A stretch of 63,324 nt of DNA, counting the filler, from Platydemus manokwari (taxonomy: Eukaryota): the NCBI GenBank assembly GCA_037951405.1. It is 6 parts of 6 records of this genome, joined end to end, with 100 filler letters (N's around TTAATTAATTAA, not from the genome) between each part and the next. Parts side by side here need not be neighbours in the genome. Positions count along the whole stretch, not along the records: positions 13,129 to 23,296 come from JBBMOY011162102.1; 5 more parts are not named here. The stretch is one strand, 5' to 3'. The position numbers and the translations under genes were made by a program. Each line of letters starts with the position of its first letter. The first letter of the stretch is position 1. The notes under the pieces are model-generated. The model made no database searches. It was not told where the DNA came from and saw only the letters and a program-made list of their open reading frames with translations. This document shows, piece after piece, positions 6,401-51,849 of the stretch.

Positions 6401-7967
6401 CGACGATGATATAAAAAATTGTATTTTAAACTCAAGAACACAAAAATCCAATTATTATGTGTAGTACACCGCCGATGATGCGGGTAGTCACTTGCCAGCC
6501 GGTAATGAAGAACCGCAGTTGTTGAAATAATTATTTTAAAAAACACTACTCGCTTCATAACAAATGAGATTTGATATCAAAGTTGTATCGAAAACGATCT
6601 CTATAATTGAAACGAGATAATTACGAAATAAACTTGACGATTCAATTTTGGTGGTATCAGTGGAAACGATTCCAAAACGTCTATTCTTTAACTACACTTA
6701 CAATTAGGAATATTATAAAAATAGCTTGTTTTTTGTCAAATACTATTTTACTGAACGACTATCAATGATAGGCGTTAAGCTATTTAGTAAACTAATAAGC
6801 TTTATCATGAATTTATATCTGGTCGCTTTAGCTTAGCTTTTGTGAAGCGAAATGTCAATGTCAGGCTTTCCTTAAAAATTGGTCATTTTTGTAATTTTTT
6901 TAATGGTGGATTTTTTTCACAATATTAATGAACTTAAATTAGTATTTCATTGTTATACCATTACTATTTCAAATTTGTTATCATTTATTTAATTATGGAC
7001 AAATAATTATTTTTTCATGTTTTTCTTTTTTACAATAACCATCAATGTAAGCAAGAGTATGTAAAATTTCCATATGAAATTGATACACACAAAGTTCAGA
7101 ATATATTGTTGGGTAGGTCACAAAAACAGCATTCGTTATTTTATTTAGAGTCAGATAACGCTTTATAATAATAATTATATGTATATATTTGTTGGTATAC
7201 TTAAGTGCCTTATATAAAATCTAAAATTCCTTAATCATAATATTATCATAAAAATCATAATTAGCCAAACAATATTATAAAAGCAATTTATAATATATAT
7301 ATACTAATGTGAGACATATCATTATAAAAATATAAAATATCACATTTTAGTATATATTGGTGGCGGTAGAAAACAAATAAAACTATAGTGTATGTCACTA
7401 ATAATTAAACGAAATTCTTCAAACTAAGTTTTTGCAATTGATTGCAACTCCGTAAAAGATATTAATAAGAGTTTATATTAATGAGTTATTTTAAACTAAC
7501 GTTTTATTATTTTAATTTCAAAACTACTTGGTTAAAGATGTCCTGAACCTTATTATTAAAAGTGTCTAACAGATTTCCCTATCATCACTTAGGGATGTGA
7601 TACGGTTCCATGAAATTAATACATGATATTTATATGATTCCAATCCAACTACTGCATATCTTAATCCCATACTTGTTTTAATGTTTACTACCGAATCCAG
7701 TAATCTTTCGCAACCTTCAGTTTCATATCGATAAAAATCTTCTTTGACAAAAAGATTTGCTTGAAATTCAAAACTAACACTTTAATAATACTTTGAACCA
7801 TGAAATAGATTTTCTATTAGCAATTGATTTGTATCTGAATAAGTTATTATAAAACAATTATGGATTTGATATTAAAATTATTTAGCGTTACAATTGTTTA
7901 CAAAATAACGGACATGCAAAACTCAGAATGTATTAAAAACCGATAAACTTTCAAAAGTAAATAAAGT

Positions 7968-9017
7968 ATGGGCAAATGTTGTTCCAAAGCTTCAAAAGTT
8001 GATGGTGATTATTTTCCTTTGGGTGGCGGGAAAAAGTATTCCGGTGATGTAGTAACGAAATTTGGAATTGAATATAATGTCGAAAGCTCTGAGTCGAAAG
8101 AAGAAGGATCAAAGTCTGTCAATACGAAATCTTTCGAGGTCAAAGATCCAAATATCCGAAGTGAAAACGATTATCTGCAATCTGCAAAAATTGCTTTAAA
8201 TGATGTTTTGTATAAGTATAAATTGGGAATATTTTATGATGAACGAATTGGTGTGTGGTTCAGAATAGTGTTCGTTTTAGACACCGATACTGTAAGAAAG
8301 CATTTTATGAGTTTCTATAATTTAAATATGAAGAATATGAGTCAAGATAAATTTTTGAATTGGTGTGATCAAAACGGTTATCCGCAGACAAAACAGTTTT
8401 ACAAATTTTACAAGTCACTGGATTTCTTCCCCTTTAGTCGAATATTAAATGCCTTATCGAATAAATATCATGTAAGATTTCATATTTCAGACATTTTCAT
8501 GTTTAAAGGCAAAGGATTTTGCCGAGCAGTTACTTGTTGTGGTTCGCATCATATGCTAGTCGATCGTGCAGTTAATGAGTATGAGTCAAGAATGCCCAAA
8601 AAAGAAATCTTGTTTAATGTCTACAAACATTGGGACAATCTCATGTTCTTGAATCCAACAATTGATATTCTTGATCATTCTTTAGATTTTCCTTTTTCGT
8701 GGCCAAAACGAATAAAACCACCGGAACCGGCATGTCCAAAATGGCCATTCGATTATTCAAAGGCTTCACCATCTGTTTTTCTAAATTATCTGGGTGATGT
8801 TAAACCGACTACCGAGACCAATTATGATCCAGTGAAATCATACAGTTTGTTTGGTGATAGAAAATTGAATTCAAAGACTCCAATAAAATTCCGTGACAAT
8901 GTAATTGTTGAAAGTGAAAATCGTACAGATGATAAAAGCGCCTTATCAACATCGGCAATCAATGAACCAGTAACAACGAAGGAGGTAAATAAATTTTTTG
9001 ATAAAAAAAGTGAATGA
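7968..9017 (+). CDS. 349-aa uninterrupted ORF of unknown function with an N-terminal myristoylation/palmitoylation-type motif (MGKCCSK)
   Basis: A 1050-nt ORF is very unlikely by chance in this AT-rich DNA. It has an ATG in an A-rich context, normal globular composition and MGxCCS at the N-terminus. No family recognised. Confidence 0.7.
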   Translation: MGKCCSKASKVDGDYFPLGGGKKYSGDVVTKFGIEYNVESSESKEEGSKSVNTKSFEVKDPNIRSENDYLQSAKIALNDVLYKYKLGIFYDERIGVWFRIVFVLDTDTVRKHFMSFYNLNMKNMSQDKFLNWCDQNGYPQTKQFYKFYKSLDFFPFSRILNALSNKYHVRFHISDIFMFKGKGFCRAVTCCGSHHMLVDRAVNEYESRMPKKEILFNVYKHWDNLMFLNPTIDILDHSLDFPFSWPKRIKPPEPACPKWPFDYSKASPSVFLNYLGDVKPTTETNYDPVKSYSLFGDRKLNSKTPIKFRDNVIVESENRTDDKSALSTSAINEPVTTKEVNKFFDKKSE

Positions 9018-12513: not shown

Positions 12514-13028
12514 CTAAATGTAAGTATTTAAAATCAATTAGATAATTTTAAAATTAAAATCTCTGTTATTCAGTATATCAGTTATTGTGTAAATACTTAT
12601 TATTAAACTGTATACAAAGTCATTTTTTTAAAACAAACACATACATCATGAAATCAAAATACAATAAACATTAAGATAATGGATACATAATCATAATAAT
12701 AAGTATTTATTAATAATAGTGAAGTGATCTACATTAGTATTTGGAGTCTTTCGTTATATGTTAATCACTATATTTCTGATAACTGATTTTCCTTTTTAGT
12801 TTTGAATTAATAAAAAACAATACGAATATTTTTGACAGTTGAGCCTTTAAAATACAGGTTTCAATATTAATAGTAAGCCGATTGTGGTAATTAATTTGCA
12901 AGATTTATGGAAAAGTAGAAGATGGAAAACAATGCTGGTTTATTTTATAAATAAATAAACCTATACTAGTACTAGTTAAGTACTAGTTAAGTAGTAGATA
13001 ATCAAAAACGATTTATTAATATTTATAC

Positions 13029-13128
13029 NNNNNNNNNNNNNNNNNNNNNNNNNNNNNNNNNNNNNNNNNNNNTTAATTAATTAANNNNNNNNNNNNNNNN
13101 NNNNNNNNNNNNNNNNNNNNNNNNNNNN
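13029..13128. other. artificial contig spacer N44-TTAATTAATTAA-N44
   Basis: A 12-mer with stops in all six frames, centred in an N run. Identical at five places. Confidence 0.95.
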
Positions 13129-13431
13129 TTTGTTATTATTATTATTATCATTATCACAATTATTATTATTATTTTTAATGTTACTATCATGTTACCTCAT
13201 TATCGCCTTTAGTCTTAATGTGTTAATGTTATATCTTTTTATTGTTGATTTCCGTCTATTCTATACACTATATTCGCAAGTAGCTCATTGACTAATTCTT
13301 ATCAAAAAGGCAAATATCAAATTGTTAGATCGAATTGATAAGTCAAATGTTATTAGGATGTTAATCAAATTGATAAATCAAATGTTCAAATGCTATTGGG
13401 ATAGAATTGAAATGGTTTGCTGTAATGAATG

Positions 13432-13560
13432 TTTGATTGAGGGCGACTGTTAGATAATTGGATTGGTCTGTTGGGGATTATTTGATTGAGGACGATTGTG
13501 GAATAATTGAATTATTCTGTTGGGAATTATTTGGTTGAGGACGATTGTGAAATAATTGGG
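13432..13560. repeat. 49-bp tandem repeat, ~2.6 copies
   Basis: The unit tttgattgaggacgattgtggaataattgaattattctgttgggaatta starts at 13432, 13481 and 13530. Confidence 0.85.
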
Positions 13561-13699
13561 TGATTGAGTTCGGTTATTGTGCGGATCATTTAATTCGGAT
13601 TTGGGATTAATTAGATGACTGGTTACTGTCGGTGGGGTTTAAATATATTGTTGTTGAATATATAGTTGTTCTATCTTGCAGATGATGAAGATGAAGGTG

Positions 13700-15440
13700 C
13701 ATCCTCAACACTACTTTGGGGGTCAAAAAGACGCGTCCTCGTGGACACTTTTCTTACTGAAGGCTTGCCTCTTGATTGCCTTTTTCCTGGGCTTCGCCTC
13801 GTTATTTTGATTCTTAGTGAGGGTATGAATTGATGTAATCACGGGACTTGACTGTTCAAATCTACATCCGGATTTACTTTGGGATATTGATATACAGTTC
13901 TTTTCCCTTCAACATCTTGGGTAGAATTTTCATTGGTTGTCAATATTGGAGAGCAATTCATTCCTCTTCTTTTATCCACTCTTCATATTCATGGAGTGAT
14001 TCCTCGATTCTTAAGGCTTCATCTAAGATGTTAATCATTTCTTCGTTTATTTTTAACTCCGTATTCTTTGTTTCCACGGATTTCTTTTCCACCTCTTTCT
14101 TATTTCTTTTGATATTTTCAGCTCCGAGGTTTTCATGATTACTTGTTGGCCATCTTTGAATTTTTCTGGGGGATGATATTCCTCTCCCAGATGCTGCCTG
14201 ATCATGTGGTCATACGACCTTTTAGCAGGCATTGATTTCTTATCTTCCATTATTTCATCTAAAGGGATTAATTTCCAAATTCGCTGATCCCTTTACTCTC
14301 GCACTATTGTCTTTGGTGCAATTGGGTTTGGATCAACCCATTCTAGTATAGCCGGGGCCTTGGTTATCTCTTGCCTTTTCAATTCCGTCATTTTTTCCTC
14401 CGCCTTGCGTTTTTGGTTGTTTACTTCGTGATCGGTCCACTGGGGTTCCAACTTCCAATATATGTCTCTAATCCCCGCTAAATGGTCTACTATGTCTTCT
14501 TTTCTCATGGCTCTTTCCATGATACGATAATAAATATCTCTCAATCGCAACAGATAGGCCATTCTTATTTTTTTTGTTCCTCCAAAACGGTATTCATCGT
14601 TTACCGCCTCGTTTACTGCTGGCACTCCGTCCAAATCTCTGAGACTTAGGATTTCCGACATCCTGCTCTCCAGCGTCTCTAACTTTTTCTTTAAGTTGTG
14701 ACCTACTACAATTCGGCCTCTCCACATGTGCATGATATGCACTTTGATTTCTTCTGCATCGGGCTGGCCTCTGAACTCGTAATAGCCTAACCCACTTTGT
14801 TCCATAAAATATTTCAATATCTCTGATCTCGAGCATAATTTTGAGCTAAAGATCATGTTGCCCTCATAGTAAATAATTCCCACCCATGTGGGATGATGTT
14901 TTCCATAGTAGTCAAGTGCCAATTCGGCATCCAAAAATATTACATATTTTCTCTCTTCTTTGAACGTTAAGTTTCTTCTTAAGAATGATAGTTGTCTCTT
15001 TGCTGCTTCGAATGGCAGCTCCATCGATGATGCCAACGGTCTCTCTGGCACACCAATCATACATCCGAACCGTTCGGGAAGTTGTTCTAGCGCCAATACA
15101 ACTGGTAGATCTGAGGCACTGTGTATAACTCCTAAGAGATGGCATTCCGCTTCTGCTTAACCTCATTGACAGTGACTGATTCACTGTATGTATTACAACA
15201 TGTGTCGTTTCTTGTGACACTTTCTTCATCAATCTGGAATCTGGATATCGTGATGCTATGATAGATCATCATCACTCGATTTCTCTTTGACGATGCCTTC
15301 AATTTGTTTGGCATCTCTTCTACTTTAAGGATTTCCTTCACCCCTACTTTACAGTAGCTTCCTTTTATTATGGATTGTTGGATTGCATTGTAGAATCGTT
15401 TTGGGTGGTGAACGACTTGAATTTGTTGAACGTCAATCTG
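13700..15440 (-). pseudogene. decayed long ORF containing a REX4/ISG20-like DEDD 3'-5' exonuclease fold
   Basis: ORF 14293..15096 has YVIFLDAE (ExoI DxE), MWRGRIVVGHNL (cf. REX4-type GRILVGH) and LRD. It reads in frame through TAA 14293-14295 (KTIVRE*RDQRIWKLIPLDEIMEDKK) into ORF 14053..14250. It appears frameshift-linked to 15132..15812 upstream. Outer boundaries are approximate. Confidence 0.55.
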
Positions 15441-15854
15441 AATCGAAAGAACCATTAATATCATTAATATTATTATTAATATGTTGTTACTCATTGCATA
15501 ATTAATTAATTTAATTATCATTCGTGTTATCATTATCATTACTATTACTTTATTTGCCTCTGTGCGTGCAATCGCTTCTGGGATTCTTCCGCAGATTGTG
15601 GCGAAATGCAACTTGTTGCAACAAATGATTTCATTTAATAATAAGGGGTTTATCATTTTATCATAATTTAATGTCCTAATATTTTTATAAATTTTTGATT
15701 TCCTCATGATTTTATTTATTTGATTATTATCAATCATCATGCTTTTACTGCTCTGCTTTATCAATTGGACTATCATAAGATAAATAAAGATAATAATTAA
15801 TATAAATAACATATATTGAATTATTTTACAAATCGACTTCCTATTCTTTAATTG

Positions 15855-16260
15855 CTATAACTCCGTCTCGTGGAATCCCGTATATAGCGGATTCCTTTGT
15901 CCTCTTCTTGTTTCTATGCATTTGTGGTATATGTAATTTCCCATGAATAAAATTAATGCTGCCATTATTATTGATAAAACGGCTTCTCCAACTATGAACA
16001 TAATTGTGTTTAGTGAGAAAACTATTTCCTCTATCTTCTGAGTTCTCATTCTTTGTTTGTCTGTGGTCCTTATTTCTTCTTCATATACCTTTCTTGTTGA
16101 TAACTCTTGTTCGACTGTTGTTGATTATTCATCTTCTGGATTAATTATTATTCTTCGTACATGATGCGTAGTATTATTCAATACCGTTTCTCCTATTTCT
16201 TCATAAAAATATACAATAATCTCTGCTGTTGAATTTTGAAGTTGCAAAATAACATTTGTA
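15855..16260 (-). pseudogene. decayed single-pass (type I-like) membrane protein ORF with a cytoplasmic NPxY motif
   Basis: The hydrophobic segment IMFIVGEAVLSIIMAALILFMGNYIY is followed by a basic tail with NPLY. An upstream broken frame (...LQNSTAEIIVYFYEEIGETVLNNTTHHVRR...) has N-glycosylation sequons. Confidence 0.4.
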
Positions 16261-16348
16261 TTATGTTATAAAAGGGAAAATAAATTTTATAATTTGGCTT
16301 TTATTGTTATCATTGTATATTGATATTTGTTTATTGATATAGGAGCCC

Positions 16349-19054
16349 TCACTTACCGGCTTGACATTGCGCTTCAACCAGTAGTAAATAGAACTGCAAC
16401 ATTAGAATCCAGCGTAAATAATTCATCAGAAGCGGATAAAAGATAATTTCCCTGTTTTTAAAATACTGGAACGACAGGAATTCCAAAACATCTTCAATCT
16501 TATCGATTCCGAGGGCCCTACCAATAAAAGGATCGAGTACTAGAAATTTTCGACATTGAAATTCTTTTTTACATAAGGCCATCATTTGTCTTTTTGTAAA
16601 GATTATGTGGTCATCTTGATTTTCTGCAATTTCCGGTCCCATCCCTGTTGATTGTTTAATCGAATCTTCTGAAATGTTTTGTTTACATTTTCTTCTGATG
16701 GTTCTGACGTCTATGCCTATGCATGATTGGTTATTAGCTACGCAATTAATGTGGCCGCATATTAATGGGCTGCAGTCAAAGTTATTTGTTTGTAATTGCC
16801 GTCCTTTCTTATCAAAGAAGTTTCTTTTTATCTTTGAGTTTTTCCAAAGTATGTTTTCGTATTTGATGTGTTGCATATCTTCTTCGCTTTGATTTCAGCT
16901 TCATTTAAGAATTCGTCACTACTCAATGGGTCAAGTATACCTTCCCTAAATGGGTACATCACTAGTAGCGTCCAGTATTGGTTTCGTACTTTAATTGGAG
17001 CAAGGACCGTTTTACATGTTGTGAGCTTCATGGGATTGATACTAACTTCACTGAGATTGCCTCCATTTGTAATTAATTCTGCAACATAGCTACTGATGAA
17101 CATTTTAATCATTTAATTTAACTTGTGTTGATACATATTTATCAATCTGGTCTCCGAAGAACCATTCGGTATACGACATTGAGGCCCTTTTGTTCGCTCA
17201 GGACGAGACCCCAGTGGAATCCCAACAAAAGTCAGATTCCGTGTAGCTCTTAGTGCAAGACAAGGAGTACTCCTCATTATCTAACAACCTTGAGCTGGGG
17301 ATGGTTGACAGGGATCGATTCTTGTTTATGTTTTTTGGTGTCGACGCTATGGCCTGTTTATCCATTAGGCTCAGCATTTTTTCTTGACTCGTAGTGAATT
17401 TTTTGATTTTGACTTCTTTAATCACTGGGTCCGGTACTTCTTCGTGAGATACACAGATCTTTTGAGTTTTATTTTTGGTGTATTCTGCCATGAGCTTGTC
17501 CTTAATTTTTTCTTTTTCTAATTCAAATCTTTTGATGAGTTGGAGAACATCAGACCTATTTTTTGCTGGGGAACCGTAGAACTTATCCAATACTATCGCA
17601 TTATCAATTCTCAATGACGATAGAGAAGATGCTGCCGTATTGATTTTAATGTGTGTTTTAGTGGAATGTGAGTTCGATTCATTCTCCAGGCCTATGGTAG
17701 GCAACTTTGTTTGCGCAGCTAAGCTAATCATTTCGAGGTTTGTCTCTATATCTTGTATTCTGGTCTTGCTTATATTTGTGTTGAGGATATCCAAGTTCAC
17801 GTGATTTGTGGTTACTATATCGAGATCAACTTCGTTCAATTATTTGGCTATAGGATTCGCGATGTTTTCCGTGAAATTGCCAAGATCAATTATATTGTAT
17901 GAGCTTTGATCGTTGAGGTTACTTCTTTTATCATCATTCAAAGTATTAGTTGGCCGAAATATATTTTTTAGAGTTTCCATGATTTTATCAGTAACCTTAT
18001 CTTCTACTCCATAATTACGAAGATTATTTTTGAATTGCAATAGTGCGTCGTTAATCTTTAATGCTGGGATATTATTAGGGTTACAGATGAGACCCTTAGC
18101 ATTTGTTTTAATGTTCGTTAGCTTCACTTTGCTGTCTTTTTCCTTTTCTCCAATGATTTTACTGAATTTATCTAAAGTTGTTTTGAGATGCTGTTCATCT
18201 TTGAGCGATTCAATGTAAATTTTAAGAGACCATGACTTGTAGGAGTTAATAGTAGCAGAAATAAGAGGCCTCCGTTTTTCCTTGAAATGAATTTCATTTT
18301 TTTCTTCCATTTTTCTTGTAGGGTCAATACGTGATAAGTTTATATTCGTTTTTTGATTTTCTGATTTAAACTGTGGGGTATGAACTCGTGAGCCAGATTC
18401 CTTTCTGAAGTTTCTTCGTGTTTTCCTCCTTATCATTTTGAAACCTTCATCATTAAATGTAGTTGGACTTGGTTCCTTGTTTGAATTCATGTTGCTTGAT
18501 TTCCGTATGCTTGACATTTTTTTCTATAGCCATCCTTCCAGTTCACAGATTTTGCAACATTTGAATAGGATGGTCTTCCATTGAAATGGTATTGTCTGTT
18601 CTCTAATTGAGAGTATTCATCCTTATTTTCAATCGGGTAATTCGCTAAGAATTTCTCCAAAACTCTGGCCAATCGATTTATTTGTTTGCGTGCATCCAGT
18701 GTACCATTTTCTCCAGCTTCGAAGCTAGAGGGTTATGATATTCTGTTAGCATTTTTCTTTGAATTGTGGTCATTGTAATGCTGGTCAACATTTTTTAAGT
18801 GCTCGTCGTAATTGTCTAACCTTTCGAGTTGTCCACTTTGTCGAGTAAGTTTAGGTAATTTGTTTAGTAGATTTTAAATACTTCTTGTTGGAGTTACTCC
18901 TGGGTCTGGGTTCATAATTTGGCTTGCCATCCTTGTAGGAACACTCGTCAAAATCATCTTTAATGTTAGATGACGAAATATTTTCTAATGTATTGACCAA
19001 CTGATGAGAAAGCATTATAGATTTAATATTTATTAGCTTCGCGGAAAATCGCAA
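16349..19054 (-). mobile_element. disrupted ~900-codon polyprotein ending in tandem Ulp1-like (C48) protease domains; resembles the N-terminal half of a NeSL-clade non-LTR retrotransposon, with RT missing
   Basis: ORFs 18851..19054, 18487..18672, 17840..18517, 17198..17839, 16828..17112 and 16349..16876 abut through stops or frameshifts. Motifs are APIKVRNQYWTLLV...ILDPL and QTNNFDCSPLIC (first domain), then FLVLDPF...IIFYPLLMNYLRWILM (start of a second domain). Confidence 0.6.
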
Positions 19055-20203
19055 TTGAAAGGGTTTCTAAATCTAGATATTTCTGATTAATAGTAATTTT
19101 CAGGTTTTACTGAATTTCGATAATGTAATCTTCAGTAGTTTTTAATATTTCAAAGTCGCACGTAGTGGACTCGATTCAAACAATTAGAAAAGTAATACTA
19201 TGTTATTTAATACACACACTATAAGTTACGTAATTCAATGTAAAGCATCATTTAGTCTTCAATTTTATCCATCAAATTAATGTACTTGGCTTGAGTTTAT
19301 TTATTTTTTGTTGCCTCTTTTTTTCAAGGTTTTGGGATTATTATCTCTTGTTCTAATTATATTGTGAGTTCTATACCACCAGTTGAAACGCGATGTTAAT
19401 CTGGTAGGTTTGTGCACTTATATTAGAAACAAAAAAACAAAATACCAAGATTGTAATAATATAATCTATTTGATACCATCTCAAATCTACAAAATGAATA
19501 TTTCAAATTTCTTTTTGCAATAAAAAAGGTTTCAAATCCCTTTTATTAAATAATCGATTGAAAATTAATTTCGCATACGCTCGAAATCCAAAATTTTCTC
19601 AACCACCCAGTTTAAAAACGAAATTAAAATTAGTAATTATAGATATAATAATTATAAATATTATAATGAATTAATTCAATGACTAATTAATATCAAATAA
19701 ATTGTGAAAATCTTTTGATAATTACTGAAAACTGTAATGGATCATCGAAGTCTTATGTCTACTTACAATTGGAATTGATTGGAACAATCTACACTTTCAA
19801 TTTTCAGTACTTCATTTCATAAAATGAAGTGCGAATCGAATTTGTTGAAATTGAGAAAATGGTTTTTAAATTAAAACTTGACAAATTTTCAATTTTCATG
19901 TGTATAAACATTAATATATAGAATAAAATTGTTTTTATTATTTAGAATCTATATTAAAATTTTCATAACAATAAGCAGCTCTGAATGTTTTGAAAGACTT
20001 CTTATAAACTATACATGCTTTAAATGTTATTTCATTATACTTTTATTAAAGGGTAAATATGGAAAAAAGATTTTTTATTACTTTATAAAAGCTTTAATTC
20101 AATTAATTTTTTAAAATACATGTTTTCTGTAATTTTCTAAAAATTTCGAAATATATATTTACAAAAAGACTTTAATATCTCATTTTATTTCTACTTTGAG
20201 AAT

Positions 20204-21361
20204 TTATTTTCGATTTCTGGAAACATATGTGAAACCTTGAGAACAATTTCTTGATTCTTGGCTGTAAGAATTGGTGCCCGTTTTGTTCATTGAAGAGTTT
20301 TGATGTAATTCAACATTGGTTCTATTGTTATATTGATTACTTTGTGGATATCTTGTTTGGCGAGTATTCCATGAATCTTTATTAATCTCATTATTTGTTC
20401 TTATGTTTTGTGATTTTTCATAATTTGTATTATAATTACACGATACTGGTTTGGTCTGATATTCTGGAAACCTCGTTTCATTGATTTTCACATTTTCAAC
20501 TTTATTTTCAAACAAGTTGGCCCATTTGGAAGGTGCAGCATTTTGAGATTTTAAAACCTCTCTAGGTTTTTCATTAATTTTATCATCTTTAGGAATTACT
20601 CTTGGAGCTTGGCTTATAATTCTTGTGTGACAACTATCTTTCATTATATTTTCATTCATATTTTTATATTGTTGGTTATATCTATCATATTGTTCGAATT
20701 GGTTTCGTGATTTTATTCCATCGATTGGTTTCTGTAAGAAGTTATTCTTCACTTCTATTTTGCTCGCATTTTCCATTTCTACATGCTTTGTTTTTTGTAT
20801 ATTTTCGTTTCCGTTTAGTATTTTGATTTCATTTAATTTTCTTGTTTCTTCCTGAATTTTTATACGTGATTGCCAAACATTTTCTGTTATTTTAGGTTGG
20901 ATTTCTTTCGATTGATTATTAACTTGTATAGATTGTTCTTTATCCTTCGACATATGAGGAATTCTTTGTTCATTACCACCGGGATTCAATGAATTAGTTT
21001 TGATTGGATATTTAATATCTTTTCCATTACTTGTTTGATTCCTGGATTGATAATTATTACTGAAGTTCTGAAGAGCAAGAAGTTTGTTTTTATTTTCATG
21101 TTTCGGTGGTTCTGTTTTTCGATTTGATTCATGATTTTTGATATTCTTAGGAATATTATTTCTTATTTCAACATTATAATTATTATTCAAGCGATCTCCT
21201 TGTGAAGGTCGATGTGTTTGAGATAAATTATTTTCCAATTTATTTGGGAATTGTGATTGATTATTGTTCTTGATTAAATGGATTTTTGGTAATTTATCAC
21301 TTTCATCATCACTCAACCAATATGCATCATCCCATGGAATAGTGGATTCAATTGAATTCAT
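20204..21361 (-). CDS. 385-aa Asn/Gln/Lys-rich, largely low-complexity orphan protein
   Basis: Uninterrupted 1158-nt ATG-initiated ORF with no recognisable domain. Confidence 0.6.
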   Translation of the reverse strand: MNSIESTIPWDDAYWLSDDESDKLPKIHLIKNNNQSQFPNKLENNLSQTHRPSQGDRLNNNYNVEIRNNIPKNIKNHESNRKTEPPKHENKNKLLALQNFSNNYQSRNQTSNGKDIKYPIKTNSLNPGGNEQRIPHMSKDKEQSIQVNNQSKEIQPKITENVWQSRIKIQEETRKLNEIKILNGNENIQKTKHVEMENASKIEVKNNFLQKPIDGIKSRNQFEQYDRYNQQYKNMNENIMKDSCHTRIISQAPRVIPKDDKINEKPREVLKSQNAAPSKWANLFENKVENVKINETRFPEYQTKPVSCNYNTNYEKSQNIRTNNEINKDSWNTRQTRYPQSNQYNNRTNVELHQNSSMNKTGTNSYSQESRNCSQGFTYVSRNRK

Positions 21362-23296
21362 TTCAATAACTTTAATAATTGATAATCACATTACGAATTT
21401 AAACAAATAATTCATAATTTCATATTATGTAATCAAGATTACTTTTATTTCCGTAAATATTTCCTGAAAAACGATAAACAAATTCACAAAATATAATTCC
21501 TGAATATTTCATGCCAATGTTTTTCATCGAATTTTAATATATCGACACATGTTAATTATATACTAAGTAAAATACAAGTGAGTGATAATAAATAATAATG
21601 TGAATATAAACGATTTATTAAATTTCATCTTACATTAAACAGTGAAAGCTGAAGGTGATAAAATGTTAATAACATGATGACCACTAACTAATAATGAACC
21701 ATTTAGCACAGATATCAATACCGACCAAATATGACAATACTTGACAATTTGTCAGAGAAAGCAAGTTAGATGTAATTCTGATGAATATGAAATACCCTTG
21801 ATTTCTAATAATTTAATATTATTTTCTATCATTTTCATTTCCAAATATTTACATTTTTATCTGTGACCCTTTTTTGTATTTTCTCATTTCCAGAGATCTC
21901 TATCGAAATGAATCATTTATATTTTACTAATAAAATCAGTGATTTACAGTTGAGAAAATATTCTCCTTTGACACATCTCCTGATATATTAATGTTTTTAT
22001 TTATATTTTAGTATGATTTTATTTTATTCAATTAGCTATACAATTGGCTTTTATTTATTGATTTCTCTTTTTACCGGGTAATCAACAATAGACAAGATTT
22101 AATTTTACAAGCAATGTGGTAAAATTTATATTGATTTTTTACATTTTAATGATTATTTACATGATAAAAAAGAATAAATTAATCTTAGAAACTTGGTTTT
22201 ATCACAGAAATTTCATATTAAAAATATTTATTAACATTAAATTATATTTTATAAAATGTGGTAATGGATTAATTTTCAATTAATTAATTAATTAATTAAT
22301 TTACAATAATTATTTCATCAAACACTGTTATTTAAAGTGGCTTGGACATCGTCCAATCACTCATTATTTAATCACCTAAAAAGCCAGTGTAAAATCAGAT
22401 TCTTTTAGCTTTCTAGTTACCGGAATTTGTAGGTCCTAATTATTATATATTAGAATTCAATGACCTCTCAGATCTCGGCACAATGGAGTATTAAAAACTA
22501 TAAACAACAGTAGCTTCTAATTTAAAAAACTAATAAAAGCATGGTTATTTGTTAGTATCTTATTTGATATTTAATCGTTTGCTGATTATCATTTGTACAT
22601 CTTTTAATTCAACAATTAAATATTTTCATTTATTTCGTTTATTAATTTATATTTCTATTCCCGCGTCTTTGGAATAAGGCACATTATAAATATTAATATT
22701 ATTTTACTTTAACCAGCTAAATCATTCTGAACTCCAAAACCCGGTTAAACCGAACAGTAATGTATATATATGTTTGTATTTGTTTAAATTTGAATATAAT
22801 TTTGACTAAATAAATCTTAATATTATTACACTCACATATGACATCACCAGAAAATCTCGAATTAGTGCAATTTATTTTTAAAGACTGAAATGCAACTTAA
22901 ATATTAAAAAATCATTTTCACCAACTCTCAATCAAGTGAATATATAATTATGGAAACATATTATTATCATTCATGAATATTTTGAATTTGGATTCATAAA
23001 TGTTGTTTATGAAGTACATTTTATAATGATTTTAATATGAATATTATTACGAGTTCTAATACCACATATCTACAATTAATTACAGTTTTTTCATATGTGG
23101 TAATATCTGTAATATCGAAATTGATTTTAAAATATAAACGCTACCAAATTTTATAAATAAATTAGGAAATCTAAATTCGATAGCATTAGCCAATCGTTAA
23201 TATATATATTATCGATACAATTATAAAAGATAATAATAAATATGATGAAGGTAATAGAATAATTATATTTTGCACATATTTTATAATCAATTCATC

Positions 23297-23396
23297 NNNN
23301 NNNNNNNNNNNNNNNNNNNNNNNNNNNNNNNNNNNNNNNNTTAATTAATTAANNNNNNNNNNNNNNNNNNNNNNNNNNNNNNNNNNNNNNNNNNNN
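23297..23396. other. artificial contig spacer N44-TTAATTAATTAA-N44
   Basis: Same 100-bp spacer as at 13029. Confidence 0.95.
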
Positions 23397-35721: not shown

Positions 35722-38307
35722 GATCTATATAATCCTAACCCATTGATAATTCAAAATCAAACAGAAACAACATCAAAACCAATAATCCGTCAATTTCCGA
35801 GAATATATTTTTATAATTTATGTTTTGATATTCATTAACGGAATCCCTTTCGACATGGTTTTGATAGGAAATGGTGTTGATTTTCGTATTTATCTGCTCA
35901 TTTCATAAGATTAATAAACATGGATGGTGAAAGATGTTATCTAAATGCACGATATCGATATATATTTGTGAAGTGTTTCACGATATCTCATTTTCTAATC
36001 ATGACTGCCTAGATTTTGATTACAGATTGGACGAAAAAGTTATTTTTAACATAAATAACTATTAAAACAAATCTCATAAAAATTGGCACGACATGTTGCA
36101 TTATAATAATGAGCAGATGCAGCGTTTAAATTATACGCTTCTTGTTCCCTTTAACCGGTAGTACTCGCAATACAAATATTTCTTCAACGTATTTATTTTC
36201 TTAAAGATTTATTTCTTGTCACAAGAATTTACTTCCTTCGTCTTGATTAGCGATTAAGCAAGGCACCAAAATTGCTTTTGATTTTCCATTCAAATATTAT
36301 ATTGAATTGGCTTCACAGAACAATAACACTTGTCAAAGATTATACTTAAATTATTTGTGTCATTAAGCCCCAAACAGTATTCACCATAGAAACCCATGGC
36401 AACCATAAATGTATTAATATTGTTCTTGGTGTTGATGATCGTATTTGATTGGTTTATTATAATACTGAAAAATATGCTGGAATAATCCAATGTACTTATA
36501 AAAATGTACTACTGACAGTTTATTATCTCAATAAAGATCCGCACTGATCGATTTAACTTACCAAGAGGATTGTGATTTCGGTTTGTCAATAATTAGTGAC
36601 CTACCAATAATCAATTAGCATATATTATGATTATTGGTTTAGCGGTTCATCTAGATTCAAAACTTGTAACCCAGTTCATTATTGATTGTAAAAGATGAAC
36701 AGCTTTTGTGATTGAGTACCTGTTCTATGTCAATCGTATCTATCACACGGTTCATTATTAATGACAAATTGCCAATACACAATACAATTTTCTCTCACGT
36801 GATAATAATGTTTTCTGCACATATTTGTTTACATTTCCCGTTTAATTAGTCTAGTGAAAATAAGAAAAGAAATTTTATATTGTGCTATGAAATAACTGGT
36901 AGACGATAATCATCACAAATAGTGGATCTATTAGAGCAAGGTTGTCAATTCCAGAACGGCACAAATAGAACAAAAACTATGGCTGAGGAATTCCGGAGCA
37001 GTATCAAAGAGAGATTACTGCAACATTAATAGACAAGTGACTGTGGAGAAACTGATGATCAGTTGGAGAAACCTAATCAATCAAATGACCTTGAAATTTA
37101 TTACGATGGAGATGGATTATCAAAGACAAGAATTAAAGAAAAAGAAAGAAAATATCTAAATAAAAGCTTTGATGCAGGCACAGGCAGGATGCGAATGCAG
37201 CGTAGAGCTCTCATGAACAAGAATGGTGTTTTAAAATAAAATTTTATGTATGCATATCGATTTTTTATAGAATTCTCATGTAAGATCGGAACTGCCTTTC
37301 TTCAAATGATTCTATGAGAAGGCTGCTGATAAAATTGTTATTAATGCTATTGAATTCAATGATTATTTTGTTTATGATTCTCCGTTGATCTATAAGTCGA
37401 TAAGAATTCGAATCCCTGATCGATATTGAAATGGTGAATCTCTTTTTCATCAAAATGTATTAGATAATCAATATATATAGATATAGATATGTATGAACTG
37501 TCATCCTCCAAATAGAAATAACAGTTACTAATATGTGGGTGGATATTGGAATATTTTTCATTCAGAAACATCTCACCAAACGCCGATGTACCTTTCGATT
37601 ATCAATGGTTTTTGCCTGTCAAATCATGGATATTCAATGATAAGAAAAAAACTCATCGAATTATCGATATTAATAAGGAACATCGATATCCTTGACAAAA
37701 TTATCAAAATATTGATACGAAATTCTATATTATATAAAAAATAATCCATCCATCTCGTAGTTGTGTCAGCGTAAAAAATCGATTATTTCATGGATCGTGC
37801 ATCTCCTGCTGATACATATTATAAAAAACTTGTATTTTCACGCCCAATTAAATGGATCCAGTGTAGCAACAAGTGTTCAACCAGTATTGACCCAGCAACC
37901 TGAAAATTCCACGAAGCCGACCAAATCGTTACCAATCTTTTTATCAGCCCGTATTACAATTTCTAATTACGCTCCATCAAACATATTAAAAACTATATCT
38001 ACTTCATTATGATTGGATATCCGTTTTAACTGCGGCAACCAATAGGAATCCGTTGTAAAGAAAATAATAATTCTTGTATATAAAACGATGATGGATTTGA
38101 AATGAATCGAGTTTTCAATGGTCTTTTTGAAGATGAGTAAGATTTCGTTTATTTCTTTAAATTTTTTATAAATTGCATTCATATTTATCCTTCATTGATC
38201 TTGAATTGACAACCCATGATGTCAGATACGACAACATTCTTTTGAAGTCGAACGATCATGCAAATACAACGATTTTAATATCGACTTCTTTTTTAGGTGG
38301 TCTCACA

Positions 38308-38949
38308 ATGACGACTTCAACGGTTGACATTAAAATCCCAAAGAAACGCGGTCCTAAAAAGAAACCAATGACAGACGAAAGACGGGAACGATTGGTTCAG
38401 AGACGAGCACGAGCCAATTCACGAGAACGAAACCGAATGCACGGGTTGAATCACGCTTTGGAAAGTCTGCGTTTGCACGTACCGGTCTTCAATCAAACAC
38501 AAAAGTTAAGCAAAATCGAAACACTTCGATTGGCCAGTAATTACATATGGGCGCTATCAAAAGTCGTACGGAACGGATCATTTCCGGATACACTGACTTA
38601 TGCAAGAATGTTAACAGAAGGTTTGTCTCAAACAACGGCCAATTTAGTGGCATCATCGCTGCATATCAATCCACGATATCTCAACAAACCATCATCCAGT
38701 GGGTTTTTGCGTCCAACGGAAAAACCGATTGAAGCTCACGATGCTGATTCTTTTAATCCATGTTTTGGGTTGAATTCGTTTAATAAATATCCCTTCTATG
38801 GCCACAATCCGGATTCTATTGGGCAGATTTATCAAGACAAAATCGATTTCAGTCCTAACTCGATATTTGTCCATCAAGACAATAGCTTGAATAATGAAAG
38901 TTATATCATGCAAGATCCATTCCAATGTTCGATCTGTAACCATTTCTAA
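38308..38949 (+). CDS. neuroD: NeuroD-family bHLH transcription factor (213 aa from ATG 38308)
   Basis: PKKRGPKKK motif, b[27 protein letters not shown]...[20 protein letters not shown], and the NeuroD-specific extension [24 protein letters not shown] polypyrimidine/AG acceptor at ~38286-38297 suggests an upstream exon. Confidence 0.95.
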
Positions 38950-47867: not shown

Positions 47868-50800
47868 CTATGATCTTGTCGAAATAGCTTGTCTCATGTA
47901 TTGACTTATTTCCATCAGATGTATGAATTTGTTTCCAGCAGCTGCTGCAGCACTTGGTGGTCGGCCGACATAACTAAAAATATTTTTAAAAAATGAATAT
48001 TATTGATTTCTTACACCCAATGAATGATGGTCTGTTGGGGATATAAAGACAAATAAAATTATTCAGTTGATATTAAAATATAAATAAAATAAAATAATCG
48101 ATGGATATACAATTTATAAAAAATAAATTTATCTAAAAATTACAAATCTCCCTAAATAATAGCCCTGTAACGATATGTAAATACAAGTACAATCGAGTTT
48201 CATTGGGTTGACATGCTGCTATGTATGGAGTGATACAGCGTGTACATCTGGAAATATAAAAGCAAAACGAATTTAACAAATTTCATTTCTGATTATCGGT
48301 CATGAATATTCACACACCAGTTTGTCAGTCTCCAACTGAGTGATGATGTGCGTCAAGTTCAACACATTATATTGGCAACGACATTTTTCAAGGAAGACGT
48401 GTGTACTAAATTTCTAAATGTTGCACAATAATTATTGATATGTTCAAGAAACTGATCTTTTCGACATTAGATAATTTCCAAAATAGGATTCTGGAAGAGA
48501 GCTTAAAAAACCTTTCCACTATAATCGACTCGAATTACAGGTTATTAATTAATAAGGAAAAATTATAATAAAAATCACGGCAAATATTTACCTAATTTTT
48601 GGCTTTCTCCGATTTGGCAGTTTCACTTTGATCAGATTATTAATCCGTGGTTCCACATAAAACCAAGCTCCCATGTTTTTGTGCTCTTCTTGCACCCATT
48701 GAACAGCTGCATCACTGTATTTGTTAAGTTCATCAAAGATTAAATCGTAAGGAAATGGAGAAATTTGTTCAACTCTTGCGATAGCAATCCTATCCTGAAG
48801 CGCACGTCGCTCACGCTCTTTTATTAATTCATAATAAACCTTTGGTAATAATTTAGCGGATATATTTCAACATTAATTTTAAAATCAATACTTTTCCTGA
48901 GCACAGAATTAATTTCTCGATTTTGTCCGGATTTTCCGTTGCTATTCCAGTCTCGGGAATCAATCTTTTAAATTTCGTATTTCCTATCATGTCATCAAAA
49001 GATGATTTCGCTTCTGGAAGACGAAGCAAAGATTTCGGAGTCATTGCAATCAACTATATGAATTTAAAAGAAAAAACATAAATAGGCTGACAACAGGAGT
49101 ATTAATAACGTACTGGTTTCCTAAATGACAATAAAACTTGTCTTCTAAGAACATGGAACATATTTGCTGGTGTTGTACAATTCACCACAAACCAATTTAT
49201 ATCGTGCAATTGCTGTGCTTCAAAATGCTCACCGAATGGCTGTAAATATCAATATTCCATATCAATATCATCACGATATTCCAAGTTATTTCGAAACTTT
49301 AATATAATTAAGATATCTGTGTAATGAAATGAGAAATTTTATATTTGACATAAAAACTAGTTTAGACATTATTTAATTGATAAATCTTATTCAAATCAAT
49401 ATTGGGGAAATTTATATGTATAATAAGGACATCATGTTTGTGTCACAATTTTGTTTTATTATCCTAATGGATACACATTATTGCATATAATAGGGAAATA
49501 CTGGTGTACAATTTAAAATGTAATTACAATAGTCACAGTAGTAAGTAGTATGAAATTAAGTAGAGTGACCTTGGATTTGAATCCATCAACCAATTATGAC
49601 TCGACTTTTATTGAATGTTCGAGTCGAAATGTTAATTGCTTGTAGAATTAATTTAATTTTCCTACTTTTTTTTATAAACTAAATAAGGAAAGCTTTCATG
49701 ATCAATTTCAAGAATTAATATGCATTGTAGGAAATGAATGGTTTACAAATAATTCCTAATTGTTCCCATATATTAAATTTGAAAATATGTTTTCACAAAC
49801 CTTTAAACATTTTGAATGAAATAAATTCCAAAAAATCAAAAAAATGAGATTTTATTGGCCAATTGATATCCACAAAACATTAACAACTTTCACTATAAAT
49901 GATCTGAATATTTTTCCATGAACATATTCATGTGAATATTTGCCCTACTTATTTGAAAATCTTTAAAATTTCAATTTCGATAATTGATTATTTTTGCCTG
50001 AACAAAGGGATTATTGATTATTTTTCAAAAGGTTTAGTTTGATTTTATATTGCTTTGTATTATAAGCGATTTGAATCTGGTATCTGTCAAAATGTTTAAT
50101 GGTGCAATTTATATTAATAAAAATAAATAAATGCTGTTAATCTAAGTTGGTATAATGAAGCACAAAACATCAAAATGAATAAATAAATAAAGGAGAAAAT
50201 TATTTTTATAACAAATAATAATTATTTAATTGGAATGAATTGTTATTATTTTCATTATCATATAATTATCAATTAATTTAATTAGTTTAATAATTAAATA
50301 ATTATTAAATAATGAATGAAAAAATCAAATGAGCCAATCAATTCAATACCGGTATATAATCTTGATCATCATTGGACATTTGGAGAAATCGTTCCAAACG
50401 AGCACTTGAATGTTCTGGTCCCATTCCCTCATAACCATGAGGAAGTAACATGACCAATCCAGATTGTCTGACCCATTTCGATTGTCCAGACGATATGAAT
50501 TGATCAATGATACACTGAGCAGTGTTGTTGAAATCACCAAATTGTGCCTCCCAACAAACCAAAGCATTGGGATCGGTTTGTGAAAAACCCAATTCAAATC
50601 CCAACACAGCATATTCGCTCAGAGAAGAATTGTTGACACAGAATTCAGCTTGTCCCGGATACAATTTGTTAAGGGCTACATAGACTGACAAATCCTTATC
50701 CTAAACATCAATCCGACAGACACATTCAAATCGATTACTAAATTATTAATCAACTTGATCATGTAACACGGTATGTCGGTGAGAAAATGTTCCCCGTTCG

Positions 50801-51849
50801 ACATCTTGACCACTGAGTCGAACATGAACCCCATTTTTCAATAAACTACCCCAAGCAAAAGCTTCACCAAGAGCCCAATTTGCCATTCTTTCCGAAACAA
50901 ACTGTTCACGCTCTTTAAGAGCTCTTTTCAAACCCGAATGAATAACGAAATCTTTAGGAACAGATGACACACATTTACCTGAAAGTAATTATTTATCAAA
51001 AAGATATTCAAAACCATAAACCAAATTTTGATAAATACCGATATGCTGTAACACAGATTCTTCAACTCCTGTGTCGGGGATTTTCATTGGATCCTTGTTA
51101 TCGAAAAATCCATCCCAAGGAGAATCGAGCCATTCACGATTGCGAATAGCAGTTTCTTTCTTGGCGAGCATATATGCATCTTCACATACCTTGTCATATT
51201 TAGAAATCTCATCCTAGTTATTAAAATTGCCATCACCAATAAAGCTGTTAAGGACAAATAGAAACTTGATATTGTTGAAGAGATACAACATTTTCAGTAA
51301 TCAATTTCTCTTTGTATTGTTCGAGGACAGTTGGTTGATTGCGGATCTTTTTGTACATCAACGGTTGTGTAAACATAGGCTCATCCATTTCGTTATGACC
51401 GAACCTCCGATAACATACAAGATCAATCACAACATCTTTTCCAAATTCATTTCGCCATTCAGCAGCCACCTAGACTCGTCATCGGTTTACATAATAATAA
51501 TAAATTGTATTATTTTGATCTACTTTCGAAACGTAAACGACAGCTTCAGGATCATCAGCATTAACGTGAAAGATCGGTGCATTTGTAACTCTAGCCACGT
51601 CCGTACAGTATGGAGAAGATCGAGCGACTCTAGGATCGGTAGTGAAACCAATCTATAATCAATTCTATTATTGAAATAGAATGGATTCGAAATATAACCT
51701 GATTATTTACAACAATGTGTATTGTTCCTCTGGTTGAGTATGAAGGTAAGTCACTTAAATGAAATGTTTCAAACACCACCCCTTGACCACAGAATGCAGC
51801 ATCACCATGTAACATTAGACTCATTACTTTTTTCCCTTTATTATCTTTG
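47868..51849 (-). CDS. OGDH: 2-oxoglutarate dehydrogenase E1, 3' part; exons 51849-51699, 51652-51524, 51469-51266, 51213-51039, 50978-50755, 50700-50350, 49239-49114, 49053-48892, 48839-48592, 47973-47868
   Basis: ThDP motif [16 protein letters not shown]...IVVNNQIGFTTDP, plus [70 protein letters not shown] and YVGRPPSAA. All junctions are GT-AG and frame-consistent. 5' exons were not found in the window. Confidence 0.97.

Follow-up and report, generated by a model that had tools for sequence, protein, structure and literature searches.

A minus-strand block of the Platydemus manokwari genome is probably a decayed chimera of a Gypsy element end and a Ulp1-carrying element

Results

We found that a GC-rich 6-kb block of the window (the whole 63,324-nucleotide stretch of DNA analysed here, filler included) is probably a decayed chimera of two unrelated elements, which lie end to end on the same strand (Table 1). 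The left half (13.1–16.3 kb) would be the 3′ end of an env-carrying Gypsy element of the Burro type (element A), consisting of the membrane tail of a polyprotein, an exonuclease gene and a repeat-bearing 3′ region. The right half (16.4–19.1 kb) would be the front part, itself truncated, of an unrelated transposon that carries Ulp1 (element B), probably a NeSL-like LINE, and is separated from the left half by a scrap of a very abundant repeat. We consider it quite likely that a nested insertion or a deletion at this single locus brought the halves together, that they never moved as one, and that this copy yields no working protein.

The GC content of the block is 35.2%; its flanks have 28.4% and 24.5%, and the highest value among 182 other 6-kb windows is 31.2%. 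This agrees with the raised GC noted in the original prediction. The uniform decay noted there was also seen, as stops and frameshifts interrupting the minus-strand coding. Coding described as nearly wall-to-wall does lie on the minus strand, but it makes up approximately 80% of the block when summed from ORF coordinates. Pfam searches of the six frames and of pieces of the block gave no meaningful match, and Rfam and ARAGORN over 12900–23300 gave no real Rfam or tRNA match. The 49-bp repeats reported as terminal are present in 2.6–3 copies, but look terminal only because the contig stops at the gap. An (AAT)n-like run lies at the contig edge (13133–13177), within the 3′ non-coding region of element A. 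There is no polypurine tract before the gap in 13129–13670, and no LTR or PBS in this piece of the window, which stops at the gap.

Table 1. Features of the block and its left edge, in window coordinates.
Feature	Position	Strand	Basis and remarks
Assembly gap	13029..13128	.	N runs with TTAATTAATTAA spacer; block starts on the left where the contig is cut, not at a natural boundary
Non-coding 3′ region of element A, probably the 3′ UTR ahead of the LTR	13129..13670	-	No ORF; depth 331–417
49-bp tandem repeat, 2.6–3 copies	13427..13573	+	TRF score 186; family D8
Broken accessory gene of element A	13671..15430	-	Several frameshifts and stops
AT-rich spacer read by chance as hydrophobic first half of ORF 15132–15854	15431..15854	-	GC 24%
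Type-I membrane domain, C-terminal end	15855..16262	-	Hydropathy: stalk, TM 15936–16025, basic stop-transfer, NPLY tail; one internal stop
Very high-copy repeat fragment (~100 bp) between elements A and B	16298..16396	.	Depth 18,542 at 16360, 61 contigs; left edge approximate
Second Ulp1-like unit of element B	16404..16615	-	ESM Atlas and motif location; ends after HW-type motif
First Ulp1-like unit of element B	16772..17164	-	Split over frames; motifs by eye; C-terminal part inside ESM Atlas-scored ORF
Long polar N-terminal region of element B ORF	17165..19015	-	No recognisable domain, Pfam blank; depth 333–865

The left half carries a broken exonuclease gene

The accessory gene of element A comprises an N-terminal domain, an ISG20/REX4-like exonuclease domain (approximately 14425–14940) and a charged low-complexity tail, the extent of which was judged by eye. 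The segment at 15231–15428 is the best match in the whole window to the N-terminal domain profile of the exonuclease family (iE 2.3e-4; next 0.64). The domain has a cupin-like look, but Pfam and PDB profile searches lent this resemblance no support. The exonuclease had been predicted as REX4/ISG20-like, and structural modelling supports this: the model (pLDDT 86) has a DnaQ-like fold whose best PDB matches are ISG20 (Foldseek E 4.7e-10, TM-score 0.81 by target) and ISG20L2. A single-sequence fold prediction with a pLDDT of 38 was discarded. The family profile matched ISG20L2 at 1.2e-32. The catalytic positions in the window read D-E-K-E-H, against D-E-[DE]-H-D in the family, and thus depart from canonical D-E-D-H-D. 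The DEDDh set is retained in 33 of 39 exonuclease domains (rows covering all five places), and the window copy belongs to a catalytically altered subgroup that shares a Lys at the ExoII acid. Full-length relative ORFs with altered catalytic residues also exist. An ordinary spliced host gene was rejected as the origin, because the alignment runs in one unbroken stretch, the gene is multi-copy and its context is Gypsy. Rotifer-type DEDDy (RNase D-like) identity was likewise rejected, as ExoIII has His and the best matches are DEDDh enzymes.

Upstream of this gene, the predicted membrane ORF with an NPLY tail was recovered, with its transmembrane helix and with NPLY at 15882–15893. The same stalk–TM–tail layout is found at the end of the ORF that immediately precedes the exonuclease in related loci L003 and L010/L011, and in L004 it closes an ORF that lies one coiled-coil ORF ahead of the exonuclease. 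By position and layout, and not by significant sequence similarity, the membrane ORF in the window is likely to be the end of the element A pol polyprotein. NPxY is rare by chance (13 in 126,644 codons); it is not a family feature, since none of the three distinct membrane ORFs that lie upstream (L003, L004 and L010/L011) has it. A hydrophobic ORF placed at 15132–15812 proved not to be a separate gene: the AT-rich spacer makes up its 5′ half, and the frameshifted start of the exonuclease gene its 3′ half. Relatives have spacers of 169–337 nt, with a GC content of 18–37%, at the equivalent place.

The right half carries predicted Ulp1-like units

ORF 16349–16894 scored 0.92 in the ESM Atlas, in which 27 of 30 matches were to Peptidase_C48 (150–156 shared features, compared with 170 usual within the family), and Pfam and PDB sequence searches with it were blank. 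By eye, the first unit has Asp, Gln and Cys (in a Q-x4-D-C motif) with a residue other than His at the His position, and the second lacks His and is cut at approximately 16404, before Asp; neither carries the full His-Asp-Gln-Cys set. Of the predicted tandem Ulp1 proteases, the Ulp1-like signal stands, but the second unit is incomplete. The predicted role of these units would be to deSUMOylate host or element proteins, or to cleave the polyprotein of the element itself. No relative of the Ulp1 ORF, longer or near in length, was found in the word-indexed protein search, which also gave no near-length relative for the exonuclease; viral contigs searched with A2, A3 and the Ulp1 ORF gave no match. 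Because no relative was found, the carrier of element B can only be guessed, and a NeSL-like LINE is our likeliest guess. The Ulp1 units lie in the front part of the ORF, and the piece ends before any RT. The approximately 620 codons that precede them have no Pfam match, and so lack the integrase-like DDE domain needed for Ginger1.

Read depth and loose ends mark the joint

Read depth, which is not copy number and came from one matching public run (contigs only; no RNA run among those listed), was 40–108 in six of the seven bins of 13872–16223 and 333–1034 in the eight bins of 16560–19247, against 4–12 in unique flank. The right part is roughly 7–8-fold deeper than the left. The exception, a depth of 1855 in bin 15216–15551, was tentatively put down to low-complexity DNA. 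Between the halves lies the very high-copy fragment, which has no second copy in the window, and 13 and 16 contigs diverge from the window sequence at 16386 and 16395. One contig is another copy of the Ulp1 element and extends beyond the 16404 break with different letters. The Ulp1 half had no tblastn or blastn match in 11 exonuclease loci, Peptidase_C48 was absent from their scanned ORFs, and no relative links Ulp1 with an exonuclease. These observations argue against the original proposal of one element that unites deSUMOylation and nucleic-acid trimming with a surface protein, and favour its fallback of two unrelated elements fused near 16345.

Two further contigs bear on how the parts are connected. 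One joins 13609 to 13801, linking the far-left segment with the exonuclease tail; the other joins 13710 to 17652, with a short side of 25 letters that is below trust level. Neither junction of the chimera is bridged by a listed piece, so that, with a single contigs-only run, misassembly or a real repeated fusion is possible. The 13710–17652 joint, weak as it is, would suit a single recombinant, non-autonomous element mobile as a unit, in which the 5′ part of a Ulp1 LINE and an (AAT)n-tailed 3′ end flank a captured Gypsy accessory region that replaced the RT. The common strand of the halves, the (AAT)n-like run next to the gap and a far-left depth (331–417) resembling that of the 5′ end of the right half also fit such an element. 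We nevertheless consider it improbable, as the 13609–13801 joint connects the far-left segment with the tail of the exonuclease, tandem repeats follow the exonuclease in relatives too, and a third repeat lies inside the joint.

Slightly less probable still is a subfamily of giant Gypsy elements, or an endogenous virus, that carries tandem Ulp1, membrane protein and exonuclease as one cassette, of which the window would hold an internal deletion. Burro elements do gather ubiquitin/SUMO-related cargo according to part of one account (PMC6431247), and the 11 loci are partial, with 5′ cargo mostly outside them; the depth step, the repeat between the halves and the lack of Ulp1 in the scanned ORFs of these loci all speak against it. 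Least probable is that the joint is an artefact of a short-read assembler crossing between repeats through the very high-copy scrap: the scaffold is fragmented (6 gaps), the joint falls on the deepest repeat and no listed contig bridges it, but both halves are diverged copies specific to this locus, and window-identical contigs of single-copy depth from one run lie on both sides (13790–14280 and 19346–20134), which fits one locus without proving it. Even if the joint were artefactual, the reading of two unrelated elements would hold.

Relatives of the exonuclease lie in Gypsy loci

We found 48 relatives of the window exonuclease at E ≤ 1e-3, the full-length ones being 409–684 aa; none of the 20 looked up had a usable name. 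They share just 19–36% identity with the window protein. In a tree that left out 4 of 47 rows for being under 120 aa, the window copy sits on a long branch outside any well-supported group and is not firmly placed. A metagenome scan returned 14 loci, of which 11 are family members; the other three, L012–L014, are too distant and were set aside, one being a likely host exon and two being DnaQ-like genes of bacteria.

Within these loci, the exonuclease directly follows an env-PR-RT-RH-IN polyprotein or adjoins TRAF/RING genes, near a putative LTR. This Gypsy pol context agrees with the original pointer to giant planarian LTR elements, and the linked RT and integrase looked for were found in L003 and L004. 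There the exonuclease lies 3′ of a polyprotein with Monjiviricetes_fusion (E 5e-94 and 8e-84), PR, RT, RNase H and integrase, the fusion glycoprotein being in frame ahead of the protease. The window fragment has neither pol (Pfam) nor the fusion glycoprotein. In L011, to which L010 is 99.8% identical, the exonuclease follows a protease-plus-membrane ORF. On contigs other than the pol-bearing ones, it follows RING and TRAF/MATH genes (L006 and L008) or precedes 2.1 kb of non-coding DNA, a PBS-like motif and gag with CCHC (L005). We take this motif to be tRNA-Lys-like. L001 has a PPT-like run followed by TG. Ubiquitin/SUMO-like, BCL2 and dUTPase-like cargo was sought in loci that are cut at the 5′ side, and the only match, to ubiquitin in L004, was weak (E 0.069). 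Tandem repeats lie 3′ of the exonuclease gene in L002 (44 bp × 3.7) and L010/L011 (36 bp × 1.9), with no DNA similarity to the 49-bp repeat of the window. Of 26 accessory starts, 20 have a splice-acceptor motif no more than 8 nt from the ATG, compared with 17 of 1243 other ATGs; the motif was defined after inspecting the same starts, and L005–L008 are kin. None of the loci with known context falls in the catalytically altered subgroup of the window.

Discussion

For intact elements, we think it possible, if somewhat short of probable, that the exonuclease is the last in a row of accessory genes, each expressed from a spliced message, and that it acts as a 3′–5′ RNase or RNA-binding factor for which catalysis is dispensable. 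Each accessory gene would have its splice acceptor just ahead of the ATG, and the exonuclease would blunt host RNA defence or trim element RNA. The dispensability of catalysis is suggested by the altered full-length ORFs and by the Lys at the ExoII acid of the subgroup; if it holds, the window lineage would act as an RNA-binding pseudo-nuclease. A broader proposal is more speculative, and we advance it only tentatively as one that may well be wrong: Burro-type enveloped retroelements may carry operon-like host-manipulation genes freed by splicing, possibly spliced-leader trans-splicing, the last being a captured ISG20-family RNase directed against host RNA defences; in the window lineage this enzyme would have lost catalysis and been retained as a full-length gene for an RNA-binding decoy.

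The locus in the window is itself junk, and it cautions that adjacent relics on the same strand can mimic one cassette. It nonetheless points to a family of at least 48 unnamed ISG20-like exonucleases, with both active and dead branches among them, on giant enveloped Gypsy elements. Enzymes of the ISG20 type are host antiviral factors, so a copy on an element would make it possible to test whether a retroelement has taken up a host defence nuclease as a weapon or imitates one. The acceptor-before-ATG pattern yields a clear RNA-seq prediction. The literature searched held no report of an ISG20/REX4-like gene in Gypsy elements or of tandem Ulp1; Repbase entries and supplements, outside that scope, may describe either.

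Comparison with known systems

Compared by published description, the relatives of the left half are likely to be Burro-type giant Gypsy elements, and the context of the exonuclease relatives matches the Burro layout as given in part of PMC6431247. Like Burro/GYPSM1 of dugesiid planarians and the GAG-ENV-POL errantiviruses of platyhelminths, in the portions of PMC6431247 and PMC13524379 drawn on here, they carry a mononegavirus-like fusion protein in frame ahead of PR-RT-RH-IN, gag with a CCHC knuckle, cargo of the TRAF/MATH and RING types, and tandem repeats. Unlike those elements, for which the same portions name no exonuclease or post-integrase membrane domain, L003 and L004 have accessory genes 3′ of pol; and the window, unlike Burro, holds a broken 3′ scrap with no pol or LTR. 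Cellular ISG20, ISG20L2, REX4 and SDN1 share the fold and, in 33 of 39 aligned domains, the DEDDh motifs, but the element-borne family is intronless and has an extra N-terminal domain, and the window subgroup has lost catalytic acids.

The bdelloid Juno/Vesta LTR elements and Terminons also carry a 3′–5′ exonuclease as an extra ORF after pol, and these ORF3s are reported to arise from spliced messages (PMC5408684, in part). Their ORF3 is DEDDy, whereas the window family is of the DEDDh REX4/ISG20/ISG20L2 type, with an unnamed N-terminal domain of approximately 170 aa, and is not RNase D-like; the exonuclease of the Gypsy elements is therefore likely to be an independent capture. Element B resembles the RLE elements NeSL and Utopia-1_TSP (PMC4640811, in part), as well as Ginger1 and Mutator with Ulp1 (PMC2836005, in part), in being multi-copy with a Ulp1-like domain, the N-terminal position of which fits NeSL. 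As far as those partial accounts go, it differs from all of them in having two Ulp1 units in tandem after approximately 620 polar codons, the piece in the window has no RT, RLE or transposase, and, unlike Ginger1, element B has no integrase before Ulp1.

Two halves of different read depth in one block

The window is an AT-rich animal scaffold (28% GC) with six assembly gaps, one of which bounds the left edge of the block at 13129. A planarian host is suggested by the element type alone. The original prediction described 13129-19100 as a GC-rich, minus-strand coding relic ending in 49-bp tandem repeats. This description held: the block has 35.2% GC, against a maximum of 31.2% among 182 other 6-kb windows, its minus strand is coding with broken frames, and the repeat was confirmed.

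Features of the block and of the remaining window
Feature	Position	Strand	Evidence
Exonuclease ORF	14293-15156	-	RNase_T clusters, ESM Atlas (0.94; 29/30 matches)
Exonuclease N-terminal domain	15231-15428	-	Family profile, top match in window (iE 2.3e-4; runner-up 0.64)
Transmembrane helix, then NPLY	15882-16025	-	
Ulp1-like ORF	16349-16894	-	Peptidase_C48 clusters, ESM Atlas (0.92; 27/30 matches)
Abundant repeat scrap	16298-16396		No Rfam or tRNA match
Ribosomal protein L7-type (RPL7) gene piece, uninterrupted 189 codons	11008-11577	-	Ribosomal_L30 E 2.5e-17
NeuroD-type bHLH gene	38161-38949	+	HLH and Neuro_bHLH matches
N/Q/K-rich open frame, 393 codons; a probable exon of the host, lying upstream of the block	20204-21385	-	Single-copy depth; no Pfam match
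350-codon ORF; its MGKCC start we take as a possible myristoylation/palmitoylation signal	7965-9017	+	No Pfam match
Exons resembling 2-oxoglutarate dehydrogenase E1	50338-50700, 51218-51658	-	Recognised by eye
Paired inverted copies of ~108 bp, probably small dispersed repeats	44949-45056/59592-59699, 1471-1578/28517-28624		

It had also been proposed that the block is one 6-kb cassette uniting Ulp1 proteases, a membrane protein and an exonuclease. To compare the halves, contigs from one public run (X1) were aligned to the window at 80% likeness. Depth, in itself a rough guide, was 4-12 in the unique flank, 40-108 in six of seven bins of 13872-16223 (the seventh, overlapping low-complexity DNA, reached 1855) and 333-1034 across eight bins of 16560-19247. 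At 16360 it rose to 18,542. Among the best-supported ends (the best 6 of 848), 29 contigs in two rows depart from the window sequence behind 16386-16395, indicating a remnant of a third repeat of very high abundance (X1 depth >18,000). One contig continues before 16404 with different letters, and by eye the Ulp1 frame stays open there. The right half had no match in any of the metagenome loci compared. Given the depth step, the intervening repeat and this absence, the cassette is not supported. A single element would accord with a weak joint connecting 13710 with 17652 (main table, best 15 of 183 joints) and with a far-left segment, terminating in an (AAT)n-like run, that equals the right half's 5' end in depth. 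We infer instead that the two halves met by accident, through nested insertion or deletion, and that the locus is inert.

Tandem Ulp1 domains, as predicted, were recovered in part: the Atlas signal and two units traceable by motif agree with them, whereas Pfam and PDB sequence searches of the ORF were blank and the second unit ends abruptly at about 16404. Protein and viral-contig searches found no relatives. Two papers place N-terminal Ulp1 in NeSL and Utopia-1_TSP (PMC4640811) and Ulp1 in Ginger1 and Mutator (PMC2836005). The likeliest carrier, by a modest balance of probability, is a NeSL-like LINE; a DNA transposon with the Ulp1 ORF as accessory gene ranks next and is rather unlikely. Ginger1 was rejected, as the ~620 polar codons ahead of the domains include no integrase.

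An exonuclease family with inherited catalytic changes

The predicted ISG20-like fold was borne out. Sequence matched ISG20 weakly (E 0.013), and the model, folded with relatives (pLDDT 86), found ISG20 (E 4.7e-10) and ISG20L2 (E 1.1e-9) as best structures. Scanning in full with HMMER retrieved 48 relatives, 15 of which reach E<=1e-10. In full-length members an unnamed N-terminal domain of ~170 aa precedes the nuclease, which RNase_T matches in 23 of 32 members, and a low-complexity tail closes the protein. An N-terminal profile built from 31 relatives matched one half of a supposed separate hydrophobic ORF, whose other half has 24% GC; that ORF is thus a spacer plus the frameshifted exonuclease gene start.

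Among 47 aligned rows, 39 span all five catalytic places, and 33 of these keep D-E-[DE]-H-D. The window has D-E-K-E-H. Its Lys at the ExoII acid recurs in four partial relatives among its better matches (P0002, P0020, P0024 and P0035); P0003, with which a tree groups the window without firm support, has Arg. Because the full-length ORFs P0011, P0028, P0033 and P0054 also have altered catalytic residues, the loss of catalysis is inherited and not merely local decay.

Relatives lie in loci with a Burro-type Gypsy layout

A metagenome scan gave 14 loci, 11 with family members. In L003 and L004 the exonuclease follows polyproteins of >2,900 aa carrying a mononegavirus-like fusion protein, protease(s), RT, RNase H and integrase. 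Several consecutive aspartic-protease domains separate env from RT: L003:2686-5175 has three stretches of them, L004:3458-4522 two. Upstream of the exonuclease, L006:54-2995 and L008:1-5150 contain, in a row, a RING gene, a second RING gene, a TRAF gene (RING-zf-coiled coil-MATH) and a pair of coiled-coil genes related to each other. Downstream in L005 come a 2.1-kb non-coding stretch, a PBS-like motif and then gag; in L001 a purine run and TG follow. In L011:3-1679 a membrane domain directly follows an aspartic-protease domain, with neither RT nor integrase between, possibly a non-autonomous or differently ordered element.

The predicted membrane ORF with an NPLY tail was seen, at a position relative to the exonuclease equivalent to the membrane ends in L003, L004 and L010/L011. 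The upstream ORFs there close with a membrane domain made up of a signal-like segment, an ectodomain, a Thr-rich stalk, a TM helix, basic residues and a short tail; all lack NPxY.

Across L003-L011, a 3' splice-acceptor-like hexamer, chosen after inspecting the starts and with four of the loci kin, lies <=8 nt before the ATG at 20 of 26 accessory starts versus 17 of 1243 other ATGs. These ORFs follow AT-rich spacers; the hexamer was not found before gag. The accessory ORFs are perhaps an operon-like array resolved by trans-splicing.

Proposed role and known systems

The structure, the relatives' context and the breaks in the window copy are established. The exonuclease of an intact element would be translated from spliced message and would act on RNA 3' ends. 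Given the RING/TRAF neighbours and the persistence of dead full-length versions, we tentatively favour an RNA-binding role that blunts host defence. An essential step in reverse transcription seems improbable, and exclusion of rival elements more so.

Among the papers searched, none describes an ISG20/REX4-type gene borne by Gypsy elements. The main text of PMC13524379 lacks the word 'exonuclease', and passages of PMC11410931 mention Burro once. The layout around our relatives is that of Burro, the giant env-carrying Gypsy retroelements, as described in section 7 of PMC6431247, whose text mentions no exonuclease for Burro, whereas the window's relatives have one. Exonuclease cargo in LTR elements has precedent in rotifers, but that cargo is of DEDDy type (PMC5408684), in contrast to the ISG20/REX4 type here.
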